Shown here one piece after another: positions 3,183 to 38,706 of a stretch of DNA of 64,000 bases; within the stretch, counting starts at the first letter, position 1; each line of letters begins with the position of its first letter. The translations under genes were made by a program, and so were the position numbers. The notes beneath the pieces were generated by a model, which was not told where the DNA came from, made no database searches, and saw only the letters and a list, made by a program, of their open reading frames with translations. Source of the stretch: an uncultured Bacillales bacterium (GTDB taxonomy: Bacteria > Bacillota_I > Bacilli_A > RFN20 > CAG-449); NCBI GenBank assembly GCA_946641515.1, contig CAMPBT010000001.1, forward strand, positions 168,512 to 232,511, given 5' to 3'.

Positions 3183-3244
3183 CAAAAAGTGTTTAATTTT
3201 TATCGATAACAAGATAATAATAAAATTGTCGATATGATAAGTCG

Positions 3245-3316
3245 GCATTTTCGTATAATTACCCTAATTGGTGGGAAAGTCTCTACGCTTGACCGTAATC
3301 AAGCACTACGAAATAA
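3245..3316 (+). ncRNA. Purine riboswitch aptamer (guanine-type, C at the specificity position), in the leader of the BMP-family nucleoside ABC transporter operon
   Basis: The sequence is UUCGUA-UAAUU-[ACCC UAAUUGG UGGG]-AAGUCUCUAC-[GCUUGA CCGUAA UCAAGC]-AC-UACGAA. P1 (UUCGUA/UACGAA), P2 and P3 stems are present, with J2-3 AGUCUCUAC (consensus AGUUUCUACC), an L3 CCGUAA loop and J3-1 AC (C = guanine/2'-dG class). It aligns element-by-element with the B. subtilis xpt and add aptamers. Confidence 0.75.
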
Positions 3317-3399
3317 AGAACTTATTCATAATTTTAAGGCTTTATTTATAATGGCTTTCTTTTTCTGATTTTGGTATTCAAAATAAGGGAGAGAAAAAT

Positions 3400-15127: not shown

Positions 15128-16012
15128 ATGAGAAGGGGGATAATATCCATGAATAAATATGAAATTGTTCATAAAAAGGTACTCAATCCTACAGTCACAA
15201 TGATGGATATCTATGATCCGTTAATTGCTAAAAAAGCATTACCAGGTCAATTCATTATTCTTCGTGTTAGTGAAGAAGGAGAGAGAATTCCTTTAACAGT
15301 TGCTGGAACAAATAAAGAAGAAGGCACTGTTAAAATCATTTTCCAAGTTGTTGGTGGAACAACAGAAAAACTCAATCACTTTAATGAAGGTGATTGTTTA
15401 CACGACTTTGTCGGTCCTTTAGGTAAAGCAACAAAGACTGATGGAGTTAAGAAAGTCTGTATTATTGGTGGTGGTGTTGGTTGTGCAATTGCTATGCCAG
15501 TAGCAGAAGAATTCCATAAATTAGGTGCAGAAGTTACATCTATCATCGGTTTTAGAAATAAAGACTTAGTTATTTTAGAAGATGAATTTAAATCATTCTC
15601 AGATCATTTCTATTTAACAACTGATGATGAATCATATGGAGAAAAAGGCCCTGTCACAGTACCTCTAAAGAGATTACTTGAAGCAGGAGAAAAATTTGAT
15701 GAAATCATTACTATTGGTCCATTAATTATGATGAAGTTTGTTGTTGCAACTGCTCGTCCTTATAATATTCCAGTCACAGTATCAATGAACCCAATTATGA
15801 TTGATGGTACAGGTATGTGTGGTGGGTGCCGTTTATCATTAGTAGACAAAGATGGTAAGAGAACTATGAAGTTTGCTTGTGTCGATGGCCCAGATTTCGA
15901 TGGCTATGAAGTTGACTTTGACGAAGCTATGGCAAGAAGTAGACAATACTTTGATTTTGAAAGACATGCACATGAAGAAGCATGTAACTTATTCAAAAAG
16001 GAGGCAAAGTAG
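15128..16012 (+). CDS. nfnA: NADH-dependent reduced ferredoxin:NADP+ oxidoreductase small subunit (NfnA / sulfide dehydrogenase beta / PyrK-like)
   Basis: FAD/NAD-binding PyrK-like fold with a C-terminal 2Fe-2S Cys cluster (GTGMCGGCRLSL...FACVDGPDF). It is paired with a GltD-like partner. Confidence 0.8.
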   Translation: MRRGIISMNKYEIVHKKVLNPTVTMMDIYDPLIAKKALPGQFIILRVSEEGERIPLTVAGTNKEEGTVKIIFQVVGGTTEKLNHFNEGDCLHDFVGPLGKATKTDGVKKVCIIGGGVGCAIAMPVAEEFHKLGAEVTSIIGFRNKDLVILEDEFKSFSDHFYLTTDDESYGEKGPVTVPLKRLLEAGEKFDEIITIGPLIMMKFVVATARPYNIPVTVSMNPIMIDGTGMCGGCRLSLVDKDGKRTMKFACVDGPDFDGYEVDFDEAMARSRQYFDFERHAHEEACNLFKKEAK

Positions 16013-16013
16013 T

Positions 16014-17417
16014 ATGGCAGTTAAATTAAATACTAATCCAAAGAAAAATCCAATGCCTACTCAAGAAGCAGACGTTCGCGCTACTAACTTTAAAGAAGTT
16101 ACATTAGGCTATACATTAGAAATTGCTCAAGATGAAGCATTAAGATGTATGCACTGCGTTAATAAACCATGTGTATCAGGTTGTCCTGTTCATATTAACA
16201 TTCCTGAATTCATTCAGCATGTTAAAGAAGGTACTCCTGAAGGTTTAGAAGAAGCATATAAAGTAATTAGTGAATCTTCATCTTTACCTGCAGTATGTGG
16301 TAGAGTTTGCCCTCAGGAAACTCAGTGTGAATCAAAATGTACATTACTTAGAATGAAGAAAGAACCAGTTGGTATTGGTAGACTTGAAAGATTTGTTGCA
16401 GATTATCATAACGCTAACGTAAAGACTAAAGTTGAAGTTCCTGCTTCAAACGGTCATAAAGTTGCAGTTATTGGTTCAGGACCTTCTGGTCTTACATGTG
16501 CTGGTGATCTTGCTAAAAAAGGATTTAAAGTTTCTATTTTTGAAGCTTTACATACAGCAGGTGGCGTCTTAGTTTATGGTATTCCTGAATTTAGACTTCC
16601 AAAATCAATTGTTCAAAAAGAAATTGATAACTTAAAAGCTCTTGGTGTTGATGTAGAAACTAATATTGTTATTGGTAAGACATTAACTATCGATGAATTA
16701 TTTGAAGATGGTTATGAAGCTATCTACATTGGTTCAGGTGCTGGTTTACCAAGATTTATGAATATTCCTGGTGAAGGATTAAAAGGTGTCTTTAGCGCTA
16801 ACGAATTCTTAACTAGAATTAACTTAATGAAAGCTTATACAGGTAAGACAGATACTCCAATTGAAAAAGGTAAGAAAGCAATTGTCGTTGGCGGCGGTAA
16901 CGTTGCTATGGACGCAGCAAGATGTGCTAGAAGACTTGGAGCAGAAGTTCATATCGTATATAGAAGAACTGAAGCAGAACTTCCTGCTAGAAAAGAAGAA
17001 GTTGAACACGCAATGGAAGAAGGAATCATCTTTGATTTCTTAACAAATCCAACTCAAATCCTTGGAGATGATAAAGGTAATGTTAATGGCATTGAAGTTA
17101 TCTCTATGGAACTTGGAGAAGCTGATGCTTCTGGTAGAAGAAGACCAGTTGAAGTAAAAGGCTCAGAACACGTAATTGATGCTGATGTAGTAATTATGGC
17201 TCTTGGTACTTCACCAAACCCATTAATCAAATCAACTACAGAAGGACTTGAAACAAATCCTCATGGCTGTATTATTGCAGATGAAAATGGTCAAACATCT
17301 TTAAAACACATCTATGCAGGTGGTGACGCAGTCACTGGTGCTGCTACTGTTATTCTTGCTATGGGTGCAGGTAAAAAAGCTGCTGCGGCTATTAGTAAAG
17401 ATTTACTTGGCGAATAA
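16014..17417 (+). CDS. nfnB: NfnB / GltD-like NADPH-dependent oxidoreductase large subunit
   Basis: The real start is ATG 16014 (MAVKLNTNPK) behind GGAGG. The track ORF start at 15873 overlaps nfnA. There are two 4Fe-4S Cys clusters (CMHCVNKPC, CGRVCPQETQCESKC) and two dinucleotide-binding GxGxxG motifs (VIGSGPSGL, VVGGGNVAMD). Confidence 0.85.
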   Translation: MAVKLNTNPKKNPMPTQEADVRATNFKEVTLGYTLEIAQDEALRCMHCVNKPCVSGCPVHINIPEFIQHVKEGTPEGLEEAYKVISESSSLPAVCGRVCPQETQCESKCTLLRMKKEPVGIGRLERFVADYHNANVKTKVEVPASNGHKVAVIGSGPSGLTCAGDLAKKGFKVSIFEALHTAGGVLVYGIPEFRLPKSIVQKEIDNLKALGVDVETNIVIGKTLTIDELFEDGYEAIYIGSGAGLPRFMNIPGEGLKGVFSANEFLTRINLMKAYTGKTDTPIEKGKKAIVVGGGNVAMDAARCARRLGAEVHIVYRRTEAELPARKEEVEHAMEEGIIFDFLTNPTQILGDDKGNVNGIEVISMELGEADASGRRRPVEVKGSEHVIDADVVIMALGTSPNPLIKSTTEGLETNPHGCIIADENGQTSLKHIYAGGDAVTGAATVILAMGAGKKAAAAISKDLLGE

Positions 17418-19206: not shown

Positions 19207-19743
19207 ATGTATTTATGGTTAGCAATAGATGTAGATGATTATTATAAAGATTTGAAAAAGAAAGTGAGTCAGATTGAAAAATCATTATCTTTTCATTATG
19301 GAACTAATGGCCTTCCATATCATATTTCTTTAAAGATTTCTTGTAAGTTACCTGAAGGTCAAGAAGATTTAATCATTAAAGATGTTGAGTCATTTTATAA
19401 AACATTGAAACCATTTTATATAGATGTTAAAGGAATTGAAGTTGACAAAGGAATTCTTTGGATTAGATATTATGAAAATGACTATATTAAATATATAAGT
19501 CAAAGTCTTAATAAATTATTAAATGAGAAATATCATATTTCTTATCATGAATTAGATTTAAATTATAAATTTCATACGACTTTATATATGAATGAGAATG
19601 CTGAAATTTTAAATAAAGGTTATGAAAAACTTAAGGATGAAAAATTAAAAAATAGATTATATTTAAATAAATATTTAATAGGTTATTCTCCTGAAGGTTT
19701 ACCGGAAACTTATAAAGTATTAAAAAAAATTATATTTAAATAA
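19207..19743 (+). CDS. 2H phosphoesterase superfamily protein (LigT/2'-5' RNA ligase-like)
   Basis: Two H-x-T/S-x motifs at the expected spacing (HISL near residue 40, HTTL near residue 125) in a ~180-aa protein. Confidence 0.55.
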   Translation: MYLWLAIDVDDYYKDLKKKVSQIEKSLSFHYGTNGLPYHISLKISCKLPEGQEDLIIKDVESFYKTLKPFYIDVKGIEVDKGILWIRYYENDYIKYISQSLNKLLNEKYHISYHELDLNYKFHTTLYMNENAEILNKGYEKLKDEKLKNRLYLNKYLIGYSPEGLPETYKVLKKIIFK

Positions 19744-19900
19744 GTGATGAAGAAAATGGACCTATTTTTGGTCCATTTTTTGTAGAAAAGTAAGAAACTA
19801 TATTTTATAATATGTAACATAGACATATAGATGCGATTATAATATGCCAAAGAAATTGGATTTATTTTTTAATTACATTTTATATCGGGGAGGAATAATT

Positions 19901-21676
19901 ATGGACCAACAGACATTAATTACTATTATAATAGCTTCTGTTTTTCTTGCAGCGTTAGTTGTATTTTTTGTTATTAATCATTTTAAAAACAAAAAGAATA
20001 AAGTTGAAGAAGTTAAAAATAGTGATAACTTAGTTGAACAAAATAAATACACTAAAAAATTAGCAAGACAAGAAAGAGCAAAGAAAAGAAGAGAACAAGA
20101 ACTTAATAAAATAGAAGAAGTTAAGGAAGTAAAAGAAGAACCAGTAGTGAGATATGATGAAGAAGTTGTTTCTTTAGATTCTATTGTTAATGATGAAATA
20201 AAAAAAGAACCTACACTTGTCGAAGAAGAAAAAGTTGTCGAAGTAGTTGAAGAAGATAAAGATGATGAAGAAGTAGAAGAAAAAGTTGTCATTTATGATG
20301 AAAAGACAAATAAGAAATTTCAAATTAGATATAACAAATCTTTAGAAGCTAAATTGATTCTTGGTGATAGAACATTAAAAGGTTATTATTCAGATGTTAA
20401 AAATTGTTTAATGAGCTTTGATGTTAAAAATAGACTTTCTTGGAAACATGAAACATTTAAGTCAGGAAGAAAGACTTTAGCAATCTTACAGGTAAGAGGT
20501 AAGACATTATGTTTATATCTTGCTCTTGATCCTAAAAAATATGAAGGTACTAAATATTTAGTAGAAGATGTTTCTTCTAAAAAAGAAGATACTCCTTCAT
20601 TATTTAGAATTAAATCAGACCGTAAAGTTGAATACGCAAAAGATTTAATCCGTGACGTAATGAAAGAATATGGTTTAGAAGAAAAAGAAATTACTAATTT
20701 AGATTATGCGAAAGATTTTAAAGTTGATACTTTAGAACATTTAATTGAAAGAGGATTAGTAAAAGAAAATAAAGTAGAAGTTTCTTTAAATACTCCTCTT
20801 TCAGAACATCCAAATATTGATGTAGCACCTTTTGGCTATAGATATAGAAAATCCTTTACTGCAAAAATTATTCAAGCAGAATCTTCTACTAAATCTTACT
20901 ATTCAGAAATTAAGAAAGCTTTACTTAGTTATGAAAAGATTTCTTCAAGAATTTCTTGGGGACATGAATCATTTAAAAGAGGTAGAGTACCACTTGCGTT
21001 ACTTGAAGTAAGAGGTAAAACATTATGCTTATATTTAAATATGGATCCTAAACTCCAAGATTCTAAATATCATGTTGAAGATGTTTCATCTAAGAAAGAA
21101 GATACTCCAACATTAATTAGAATTAAGACAGATAGAAAATTAAAATATTCATTAGAATTAATTAATAAATTAATGACTGAACTTAAAGTTGAAGAAGGTG
21201 AAGTTATTAATCATAACTATGCTTTAGATTATCCTTTTGAAGAAAATGAGCCATTAATTGAAAGAGGCTTAATCAAGGCTTATGAAGTTAAAAATCCTAA
21301 ACCAGTAGAAGAAAAGAAAGTTGTAAGAGAAGAAAAAATTAAAGTAGTTAAGAAAGTTGAAGCTTCTGAAGCTAATAAACTTGTTTCTGATAATACTGCT
21401 GAAAGAAAACTTCGTTATGTAGATGTAAAACAAAATCCTACTAAAAAAGCAATTATTAATATTGATGTACTTGCAAAATATTTTGAAAACGGAGAAGTAG
21501 TTGATTTAAAGGCGATTAAAGAAAGAATTCCAGGCTACAAGAAGGTTACATACATTAAGGTTTTAGGTAGAGGAATGCTTGATAAAAATCTAAAAGTTAT
21601 CGCAGATGATTATTCTCCTCTTGCAGTAAAAATGATTCTTTTATTAGGTGGAGAACCTTATATAACTACAAAATAA
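19901..21676 (+). CDS. Membrane-anchored protein with a K/E-rich linker, an internal tandem duplication of a ~165-aa domain and a ribosomal uL15-like C-terminal domain
   Basis: The real start is ATG 19901 (MDQQTLITIIIASVF, a TM helix) behind GGGGAGG. The repeats at residues ~140-300 and ~310-470 share W(K/G)HE(T/S)FK(S/R)GR...LA(I/L)L(Q/E)VRGKTLCLYL...DPK...Y(L/H)VEDVSSKKEDTP(S/T)L(F/I)RIK(S/T)DRK. The C-terminus (YIKVLGRGMLDKNLKVIADDYSPLAVKMILLLGGEPY) aligns to the uL15 C-terminal block [32 protein letters not shown]. Confidence 0.55.
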   Translation: MDQQTLITIIIASVFLAALVVFFVINHFKNKKNKVEEVKNSDNLVEQNKYTKKLARQERAKKRREQELNKIEEVKEVKEEPVVRYDEEVVSLDSIVNDEIKKEPTLVEEEKVVEVVEEDKDDEEVEEKVVIYDEKTNKKFQIRYNKSLEAKLILGDRTLKGYYSDVKNCLMSFDVKNRLSWKHETFKSGRKTLAILQVRGKTLCLYLALDPKKYEGTKYLVEDVSSKKEDTPSLFRIKSDRKVEYAKDLIRDVMKEYGLEEKEITNLDYAKDFKVDTLEHLIERGLVKENKVEVSLNTPLSEHPNIDVAPFGYRYRKSFTAKIIQAESSTKSYYSEIKKALLSYEKISSRISWGHESFKRGRVPLALLEVRGKTLCLYLNMDPKLQDSKYHVEDVSSKKEDTPTLIRIKTDRKLKYSLELINKLMTELKVEEGEVINHNYALDYPFEENEPLIERGLIKAYEVKNPKPVEEKKVVREEKIKVVKKVEASEANKLVSDNTAERKLRYVDVKQNPTKKAIINIDVLAKYFENGEVVDLKAIKERIPGYKKVTYIKVLGRGMLDKNLKVIADDYSPLAVKMILLLGGEPYITTK

Positions 21677-21764
21677 ACAATTAGTTTAATTTATTTATAA
21701 AAAAGTGAGTTACAAACAATAAGTTTGTGCTATAATTTAAGAAAAAAGAAAGGAGACATTAATA

Positions 21765-21992
21765 ATGGCAAAAAGCAAGGGCGGAGACTACTTTGGTCTT
21801 AACTATCTCGTAAGTGTTATTCTTGCAATCATCCCAGTTACATCATGGATTTTAGGTGTCGCTACAAGATTCTCAGAAGGAAAAATCGTTGCAGCATTAC
21901 TTCGTTTATTCCTTGGATGGAACATCATCTGGATCTTAGACATCATCTTAATGATTTTAAGCAAACACATTTTAAGATTATTAAATATCTAA
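21765..21992 (+). CDS. Small TM2-domain-like membrane protein
   Basis: 75 aa with two TM helices and a GWNIIWILDIIL motif typical of TM2 domains. Confidence 0.45.
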   Translation: MAKSKGGDYFGLNYLVSVILAIIPVTSWILGVATRFSEGKIVAALLRLFLGWNIIWILDIILMILSKHILRLLNI

Positions 21993-22006: not shown

Positions 22007-22031
22007 GGCACCATTCGTGGTGCCTTTTTTT
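22007..22031 (+). terminator. Rho-independent terminator
   Basis: GGCACCA-TTCG-TGGTGCC hairpin followed by TTTTTTT. Confidence 0.7.
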
Positions 22032-28997: not shown

Positions 28998-29118
28998 AAC
29001 TTGTTCTTCAGGGTTATGTGAAATTCATTCCCGGAGGTATACCCCTCGAGCTCATAAGAGCATGAACCTGTGCAATTCAGGTGGCGACAGTAAAGGCTGG
29101 ATGAAAGAAGAGCAATAT
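28998..29118 (+). ncRNA. FMN riboswitch (RFN element) aptamer
   Basis: P1 UCUUC/GAAGA, then GGGUUAUGUGAAAUUCAUUCCCGGAGGUAUACCCCUCGAGCUCAUAAGAGCAUGAACCUGUGCAAUUCAGGUGGCGACAGUAAAGGCUGGAUGAAAGAAGAG. This matches the RFN consensus blocks (GUGAAAUUC, CCGGCGGUA, GCGAGC, GCCGACAGUnAAAGUCUGGAUGnnAGAAG). The GC content is locally elevated. Confidence 0.85.
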
Positions 29119-38517: not shown

Positions 38518-38523
38518 AGTTGT

Positions 38524-38706
38524 GTCTAGAAGGTCATTATGCGTTTCCTACATTTTGTTTTCGGGAATCGTTTCCATCACTGTGGTGTTGAAGGCCGTCA
38601 CATTAAGTTAGGCGGAATCCTAAAGCAGTGAAATGATGCCCACTTAGTAAGGATAGGAATATCCTTAGGCTTTCTGGACATTTTATTATGTTTAGGAGAA
38701 ATATAC
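38524..38706 (+). ncRNA. Relatively GC-rich, structured 5' leader of tkt (candidate cis-regulatory RNA, class not recognised)
   Basis: The composition (GGCGGAAUCC, GAAGGCCGUCAC) contrasts with the flanking AT-rich DNA. It contains hairpins GGAA-UCGU-UUCC and AAGGAUA-GGAA-UAUCCUU and a possible long-range CACUG/CAGUG pairing. Confidence 0.3.

Follow-up and report, generated by a model that had tools for sequence, protein, structure and literature searches.

A widespread membrane-tethered architecture in gut bacteria joins an undescribed duplicated domain to a homologue of the globular half of ribosomal protein uL15

What is a domain of the ribosomal protein uL15 doing at the end of a membrane-anchored protein, and is that protein anything other than a misplaced component of the ribosome? 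The question is raised by a gene at 19901..21676 (+ strand) of a 64,000-nucleotide stretch (hereafter the window) from an uncultured Bacillales bacterium (assembly GCA_946641515.1, contig CAMPBT010000001.1, positions 168,512 to 232,511). The gene is a complete open reading frame (ORF) of 591 amino acids and a stop codon, running from an ATG at 19901 to a TAA at 21674-21676. Its product falls into five parts that follow one another in the order hydrophobic helix, charged spacer, two repeats, a 41-residue basic linker and a C-terminal domain. A first-pass annotation of the window had noticed most of this layout and had not recognized the architecture. uL15 is a universal ribosomal protein whose fold is not known to have an extraribosomal use, and none was found in the literature searched. 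To address the question we examined each part of the protein by sequence, profile and structure-model comparisons, collected its relatives from bacterial genomes, and analyzed the genomic context of the gene.

The C-terminal domain spans residues ~485-591 (21353..21673, +), and homology to the globular C-terminal domain of uL15 extends over its last ~75 residues. In Pfam, residues 518-585 match PF00828 (Ribosomal_L27A) with 30.9 bits against a gathering score of 21.5 (E = 3.7e-7), so that the uL15-family relationship proposed in the first-pass annotation holds; that annotation had confined the likeness to the last ~60 residues, which falls short of the full folded domain. A single-sequence phmmer search against the PDB recovered uL15 chains with E-values of 3.5e-6 to 8e-5, aligned to uL15 residues 70-142/146, and a profile of 65 family members reached chloroplast uL15c at E = 3.4e-13 and the uL15 proteins of Enterococcus, Staphylococcus and Listeria at ~1e-9. 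An AlphaFold2 model of residues 305-591 has a predicted local distance difference test score (pLDDT) of 91.6, with values mostly >90 in the C-terminal domain, and the top PDB matches of the C-terminal model in Foldseek are essentially all uL15 chains. The signature positions of uL15 are kept (VN.D.L ... KVL..G.L.K.L.V.A..FS..A...I...GG), alongside family-specific changes such as KVLARG and ADDFS, the latter where uL15 has A(K/H)KFS. These results establish true homology to the globular half of uL15. A word-index search with the C-terminal 112 residues alone returned nothing, which reflects a limitation of such short queries and is no evidence of absence.

The same comparisons set the protein apart from uL15 itself. 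The N-terminal ~70 residues of uL15 are a basic, glycine-rich extension that enters the core of the 23S rRNA; here all alignments begin at uL15 residue ~69-71 and cover only ~70-143, and the residues upstream of the match are those of repeat 2 and the linker. The rplO equivalog model TIGR01071 is matched with 23.8 bits against a cut-off of 77.95, and then only at model positions 69-141/144. Moreover, rplO normally lies in the ribosomal spc operon in an rplO-secY neighborhood, whereas the window gene lies outside any ribosomal-protein operon and encodes a 591-residue protein with a transmembrane helix rather than a small soluble one. Thus, of the four testable marks of uL15, the PF00828 globular domain is present and the other three (the extension, the TIGR01071 cut-off, and a small soluble protein from the spc operon) are wanting. 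Relatives of the protein are nevertheless named "uL15 family ribosomal protein" by NCBI and "ribosomal protein L15" or "L18E" by IMG; given the missing extension, the TIGR01071 failure and the family-specific changes, we consider these names misleading.

Ahead of this domain stand two copies of a basic alpha/beta-sandwich domain: repeat 1 (residues 139-293; 20315..20779, +), with an isoelectric point (pI) of 9.2 and boundaries set by hidden Markov model, and repeat 2 (residues 310-464; 20828..21292, +), the same domain and the copy modeled with AlphaFold2. They share 53% identity over 154 amino acids (E = 7e-56), which bears out the tandem duplication noted in the first-pass annotation; the length given there, ~165 residues, corresponds neither to the unit (~155 residues) nor to the period (171 residues). 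No Pfam family was found among the 39 diverse repeats scanned. Touches on Cas9_PI, Tex_YqgF, dsRBD2 and other families were scattered, single-member chance matches that we discard as noise; profiles PF04237, PF08818 and PF18899 gave nothing significant among the 39, one of which touches PF18899 (DUF5655) at E = 0.056. The repeat profile found no match among PDB sequences either. The unit thus coincides with no Pfam domain and has no sequence relative in the PDB; the first-pass annotation had called it an unknown domain. We regard the repeat as an undescribed domain.

The model of repeat 2 is confident (pLDDT 91.6, predicted template-modeling score 0.86) and shows a helix, five strands and a second helix forming a sandwich, with an added N-terminal strand clasped to an extension at the C-terminus. 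Foldseek comparisons with the PDB returned weak matches, namely Escherichia coli YjbR (2fki; E = 0.022, probability 0.98, template-modeling scores 0.39/0.50) and the YdhG/DUF1801 proteins 9t2w (E = 0.054) and 2oc6 (E = 0.065). Among the viral models of BFVD, the repeat matched D9ZNF6 at E = 5e-4 and a phage DUF5655 protein at E = 2.6e-3 (template-modeling score 0.51). These top matches are mutually consistent, and the modeled repeat can be said to weakly resemble the YjbR/DUF1801/DUF5655 proteins at the level of the fold. Median identity is 68% between repeats within one protein as against 41% between repeats at the same position in different proteins, which indicates that the duplication has been recurrent or concerted.

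The N-terminal transmembrane helix comprises residues 6-25 (19916..19975, +), as judged from hydropathy and flanking charge, and is followed by a K/E-rich spacer at residues 27-138 (19979..20314, +) with 34 D/E and 25 K/R in 112 residues and a pI of 4.9; the first-pass annotation had read both features correctly. There are no K/R residues before the helix and five among the 15 residues after it, and the same polarity, with K/R only after the helix, is seen in 61 of 61 homologues with a single N-terminal transmembrane helix. In giant relatives of the protein (see below), basic clusters follow both the first transmembrane helix and a later hydrophobic hairpin. Because of these two patterns, the positive-inside rule predicts an N-out/C-in topology that would place the repeats and the uL15-like domain in the cytoplasm. 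Both are basic across the family, with a median pI of 9.5 for 189 repeats and likewise 9.5 for 78 uL15-like domains. Whole-protein searches of Pfam further gave weak matches to DUF7692, Tex_YqgF, DUF5775, FeoB_associated and SID-1, all of them below threshold and rejected for that reason. A 104-amino-acid Ser/Thr-rich antisense ORF at 19978-20292 (-), opposite the spacer, most likely arises from the K/E-rich composition of the coding strand and is not taken as a gene.

How widely is this architecture found? A word-indexed search with the full protein gave 436 significant relatives. In a scan of one genome per species the single protein found no relatives, whereas alignment A1 did, and at least 340 loci were confirmed among the 600 pattern matches listed. 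They lie nearly all in gut metagenome-assembled genomes (MAGs), one group in Clostridia (Christensenellaceae-like, Gallimonas, Coproplasma, Borkfalkiaceae) and a second in Bacilli (Erysipelotrichaceae, Anaeroplasmataceae, "Mollicutes"). At a clustering level of 50% identity, an exhaustive search with the repeat profile retrieved 3,593 clusters with E <= 1e-3 and 1,809 at the stricter E <= 1e-30. A search of 2.9 million viral contigs with alignment A1 gave no relatives, which argues that the family is not phage-borne. With no Pfam model for the repeat and no paper describing the family found in the literature, the architecture is indeed undescribed; it is no peculiarity of the window but that of a widespread family. 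Two family genes lie on different contigs (L028 and L033) of one Borkfalkiaceae MAG, CAQTYU01, and are paralogues within a single genome. Precomputed matches of homologues to FRB_dom and Syndecan fall on coiled or charged linkers and transmembrane segments, and we judged them spurious.

Inspection of 260 family proteins revealed four classes of architecture. Class (a), which includes the window protein, has an N-terminal transmembrane helix or pair of helices, a spacer and one to three repeats, with or without the uL15-like domain. Class (b) proteins lack a transmembrane segment and combine one repeat with the uL15-like domain behind N-terminal peptides such as MCLAWLFRRRKKK or MSLFDFFRRKK; we infer that these hydrophobic-polybasic peptides may be peripheral membrane-binding motifs. 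Class (c) comprises giants of 1.3-4.7 thousand amino acids (e.g., P0128, P0183, P0184 and P0191; up to 4,721 residues), which open with a signal peptide and expose a large extracellular region containing Flg_new, beta-helix or Ig domains, followed by a transmembrane helix, a conserved hydrophobic hairpin with the motif "SHYLDxP", two to three repeats and the uL15-like domain. Class (d) proteins lack a transmembrane segment and either begin with the repeat or carry DUF2357, the McrC N-terminal domain, followed by two to four repeats.

The placement of the uL15-like domain across these classes is strict. It stands at most 10 residues from the C-terminus in all 122 of its occurrences among the 260 proteins, and of these 122 proteins 87 have a transmembrane segment while 33, together with 2 variants, have an N-terminal hydrophobic-polybasic peptide. 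In the 56 class (d) proteins without a transmembrane segment it is absent throughout. Given this pairing (122/122 anchored, counting the peptides as putative anchors, and 0/56 in class (d)), the function of the domain seems tied to the membrane. Together, the repeats and the uL15-like domain form a module that is reused as the cytoplasmic tail of membrane proteins in Clostridia and Bacilli of the gut.

The repeat also leads to a different set of proteins. Thirty of the 39 family repeats in alignment A4 match the PADLOC candidate PDC-S18 (best E = 3.7e-12); the window protein itself has no match in PADLOC, and nothing relevant on PDC-S18 was found in the literature. PDC systems are untested defense candidates (bioRxiv 10.1101/2024.01.29.577857). 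The N-terminal domain of McrC (DUF2357), which makes contact with the McrB GTPase (PMC11090510), is fused to two to four repeats in P0065, P0115, P0123 and P0124, which lack a transmembrane segment (loci L087:4393-8768, L088 and L089). At these three loci one flank is occupied by an N-terminally hydrophobic 513-amino-acid protein that matches PDC-M26A at E = 3.9e-35 and, weakly, AAA_5, and the other by an S24/S26-peptidase-like gene followed by GGDEF/EAL genes. Such loci may represent a McrBC-derived cassette.

Is the window gene, with its internal duplication, a real and functional gene? An exact-sequence look-up of the window protein, with either of two possible starts, returned no record, and for synteny we used instead a homologue that is 93% identical (P0001), encoded at the syntenic locus of a close relative (L081). 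Twelve independent metagenomic contigs carry this homologue in the same neighborhood of genes. In the comparison with L081, the ratio of nonsynonymous to synonymous substitution rates (dN/dS) is 0.17 for the whole gene, 0.06 and 0.18 for the two repeats and 0.09 for the uL15-like domain; the transmembrane helix and linker, at 0.45, are the least constrained part. The gene is under purifying selection, its folded domains included. From the recurrence on 12 contigs and this constraint we conclude that it is a real functional gene and that the duplication is no assembly artifact. As for its start, a Shine-Dalgarno sequence, GGAGG, lies at 19889..19893 (+), 7 nt upstream of the ATG at 19901, and both are conserved in L081. 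A longer ORF would begin with an ATG at 19844, which is an improbable start because it directly follows a TATAAT box (19838-19843) and reads ACG in L081; the start at 19901 is favored accordingly. The box belongs to a promoter-like site at 19814..19843 (+), composed of GTAACA, an 18-nt spacer and TATAAT (10 of 12 positions in a consensus scan), in a region that is conserved in L081. This site, a consensus match only, would give the gene a transcription unit of its own.

Directly upstream on the same strand, as the first-pass annotation had stated, lies the ORF that it called a LigT-like 2H phosphoesterase (19207..19743, +). Its identity as a 2H enzyme is weaker than its position, for although two HxS/T motifs are present, PF13563 is matched with 20.8 bits, below the gathering score of 27. 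It is closed by an intrinsic-terminator-like hairpin at 19754..19782 (+) with a 9-bp stem, a 7-nt loop and a T-run, which folds at -15.7 kcal/mol (z = -4.76; none of 200 shuffles folds as well) and is conserved in L081. In that relative (L081:5475-6001) the LigT-like gene has lost its 5' two-thirds by deletion, and what is left, a ~190-bp 3' piece and the terminator, stands beside an intact family gene. We examined the neighborhoods of the best 80 of the at least 340 loci, to which the statements below on conserved neighbors also refer: a LigT-like ORF occurs within 6 kb of none of them, so that the two genes show no conserved co-occurrence at these loci. With the terminator and the promoter-like site between the genes, the lack of such an ORF near 80 relatives and its deletion in L081, a functional link to the LigT-like gene is unsupported.

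The other neighbors in the window are genes of metabolism and metal homeostasis (gltD-like, flavin reductase, cysK, superoxide reductase, CBS, HMA and feoAB), and they are syntenic in L081. Across the family no conserved neighbor emerged beyond clade-level synteny, and no conserved defense neighbors were found. In 8 of the 80 loci (e.g., L002:3921-5387) the gene immediately upstream, in the same orientation, is spoIVA with its three SpoIVA Pfam domains all present; clade-level synteny is the probable cause, with a link to sporulation as a possibility. Directly downstream of the window gene, a 75-amino-acid ORF with two hydrophobic helices (21765-21992) has a promoter-like site of its own (21709-21736) and a strong terminator 3' of it (22007-22024); it matches no family in Pfam or NCBIfam, and the close relative has an ORF of equal length. 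Farther upstream, a listed 514-amino-acid ORF with a TTG start (15873-17417), similar to the glutamate synthase small subunit, overlaps the preceding ORF, and its true start probably lies further downstream, given the 467-amino-acid call in the relative. The window also contains Rfam matches above gathering scores to an FMN riboswitch (29000-29116), a purine riboswitch (3231-3328) and 6S RNA (38520-38684).

What, then, might the module do? We propose a single-pass protein with a very short N-terminus outside and all else in the cytoplasm, where the long charged spacer would hold three basic folded domains off the membrane. The module would bind nucleic acid on the cytoplasmic side of the membrane, the uL15-like domain having RNA or a large-subunit particle as its most probable ligand, and the tandem repeats would add affinity or avidity, so that the protein would tether or recruit this ligand to the membrane. 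We tentatively take a membrane-held module that binds RNA or a ribosomal large-subunit particle as the best explanation of the data as a whole. This ligand is favored because the terminal domain derives from uL15 and is found strictly in combination with membrane anchoring. The suggestion that the repeats too bind nucleic acids comes from their basic character, the weak YjbR/DUF5655-like fold and the fusion to the McrC N-terminal domain together with the PDC-S18 homology, as domains added in a defense-candidate context typically recognize nucleic acids. The ribosome- or rRNA-tethering role floated in the first-pass annotation is compatible with the predicted orientation into the cytoplasm, with the basic character of the domains and with the strict combination of the uL15-like domain and an anchor. 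A more specific version, in which the module captures large-subunit particles (e.g., uL15-free precursors) or particular RNAs at the membrane by means of an extraribosomally recruited uL15 domain, strikes us as conceivable yet rather doubtful.

Several observations weigh against the binding of RNA or large-subunit particles. The absent N-terminal extension carries much of the rRNA contact of uL15. Since the uL15 site of mature 50S subunits is filled already, docking there is unlikely with mature ribosomes and would be possible only with uL15-free precursors. Some basic or neutral positions of uL15 have become acidic in the family, and the change from A(K/H)KFS to ADDFS hints at an altered specificity. 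The fold matches of the repeat are weak (template-modeling scores of ~0.4-0.5; E-values of 0.02-0.06 in the PDB), and the YjbR, DUF1801 and DUF5655 families are themselves poorly characterized, with YdhG annotated as frataxin-like rather than as a nucleic-acid binder. The window protein does not match PDC-S18 at E <= 0.01, nor does repeat 2 at E <= 1, and no translation- or RNA-related neighbors are conserved.

These points lend some room to other explanations. If the repeats rather than the terminal domain defined the ligand, they could recognize chromosomal DNA or incoming phage or plasmid DNA at the membrane, with the uL15-like domain as an accessory, and the protein would tether the nucleoid to the membrane or act near the envelope as a sensor or exclusion factor. 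Among PDB structures the repeat comes closest in fold to E. coli YjbR, whose family is annotated as a DNA-binding "double-wing" protein, and to this may be added the fold match to a phage DUF5655 protein, the fusion to the McrC N-terminal domain beside a PDC-M26A-like protein and the resemblance of 30 of the 39 repeats to PDC-S18. However, the window gene sits among metabolic genes such as cysK, superoxide reductase and feoAB in a synteny kept by its relative, its product lacks a PADLOC match, and the family is missing from the 2.9 million viral contigs while being spread over at least 340 species-representative genomes; furthermore, the domain found strictly with anchoring comes from an RNA-binding ancestor. 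On balance we consider a DNA-binding or defense role unlikely. Alternatively, the tail might bind no nucleic acid at all and serve as a scaffold, either between proteins or close to the membrane, through which membrane and surface proteins would be anchored, clustered or regulated, the uL15 fold having been exapted to this end; its ligands might be anionic lipids or a cytoplasmic partner protein. Such a role would suit the presence of the same module at the end of surface proteins of 1.3-4.7 thousand residues, the potential of basic domains near the membrane to bind acidic phospholipids, the variable copy number (one to three repeats) with its recurrent within-protein duplication, and the acidic substitutions in the uL15-like domain. 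It sits less well with a uL15 signature kept almost intact under strong constraint and with a spacer of >100 residues that keeps the domains away from the bilayer, and the occurrence of the repeat in fully cytosolic fusions to the McrC N-terminal domain argues against a purely membrane- or lipid-binding role. A scaffold of this kind thus also appears improbable to us.

Two further explanations fare much worse. That the protein works in RNA repair or processing as a partner of the upstream LigT-like 2H phosphoesterase would account for the same-strand adjacency in the window, and the weak 2H similarity with its two HxS/T motifs would fit; yet the terminator hairpin and separate promoter-like site between the two genes, the lack of a LigT-like ORF within 6 kb at the 80 loci and the deletion of most of that gene in the close relative contradict it, and we give it very little credence. 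That it is a genuine, if variant, ribosomal protein uL15 is what the PF00828 score above threshold and the source names ("uL15 family ribosomal protein", "ribosomal protein L15", "ribosomal protein L18E") would imply. This is effectively refuted by a match limited to uL15 residues ~70-143, the TIGR01071 score (23.8 vs. 77.95), a length of 591 residues with a transmembrane helix and two unrelated domains, relatives of up to 4,721 residues with extracellular parts, and a gene outside the ribosomal-protein operon.

Whatever the ligand, the protein combines a known ribosomal-protein domain with a known fold class in an undescribed, widespread and membrane-tethered architecture. The ribosomal-protein labels on these proteins amount to a systematic annotation error across hundreds of species represented by gut MAGs, and a membrane-tethered extraribosomal uL15 domain in hundreds of species would come as a surprise to specialists of the ribosome or the envelope. 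The repeat spans small membrane anchors, the tails of giant surface proteins and McrC-type or candidate-defense proteins, and with the domain defined, thousands of proteins now called "hypothetical" could be annotated. Should RNA or ribosomes prove to be bound by the module, it would be a straightforward and testable case of translation or RNA being localized at the bacterial membrane, and in the little-studied Firmicutes of the gut it could also link surface proteins with the cytoplasm. This would be a new coupling of the cell surface to translation or RNA localization, in proteins ranging from anchors of 350 residues to surface proteins of 4.7 thousand.

A comparison with known systems helps to place the architecture. 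With uL15 the C-terminal domain shares the signature, the predicted fold, the basic character and the location at the C-terminus of the protein; the window protein differs in fusing it behind a transmembrane helix, a spacer and two unrelated domains. The modeled core of the repeat (helix, five strands, helix) superposes weakly on 2fki, 9t2w and 2oc6 and on a phage DUF5655 protein, members of the YjbR/MmcQ, YdhG/DUF1801 and DUF5655 families. However, one strand is added at its N-terminal end and an extension of ~35 residues at its C-terminal end, it is without a significant sequence or profile relationship to these families, and it occurs as tandem copies inside large membrane proteins, whereas they are stand-alone proteins of ~120 amino acids. 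With PDC-S18 and the DUF2357 fusions the window protein shares the same repeat domain by sequence, but it lacks DUF2357, lies outside a defense island, and carries a transmembrane anchor and a uL15-like domain that are never found in the cytosolic DUF2357 forms. The E. coli proteins YqjD, ElaB and YgaM are membrane-anchored ribosome-binding proteins with C-terminal anchors. By analogy with them, the window protein may be seen as a small single-pass protein that would keep ribosomes at the membrane through its cytoplasmic part; it has no sequence or domain similarity to them (no DUF883-type Pfam match), and its anchor is N-terminal, giving it the opposite polarity.

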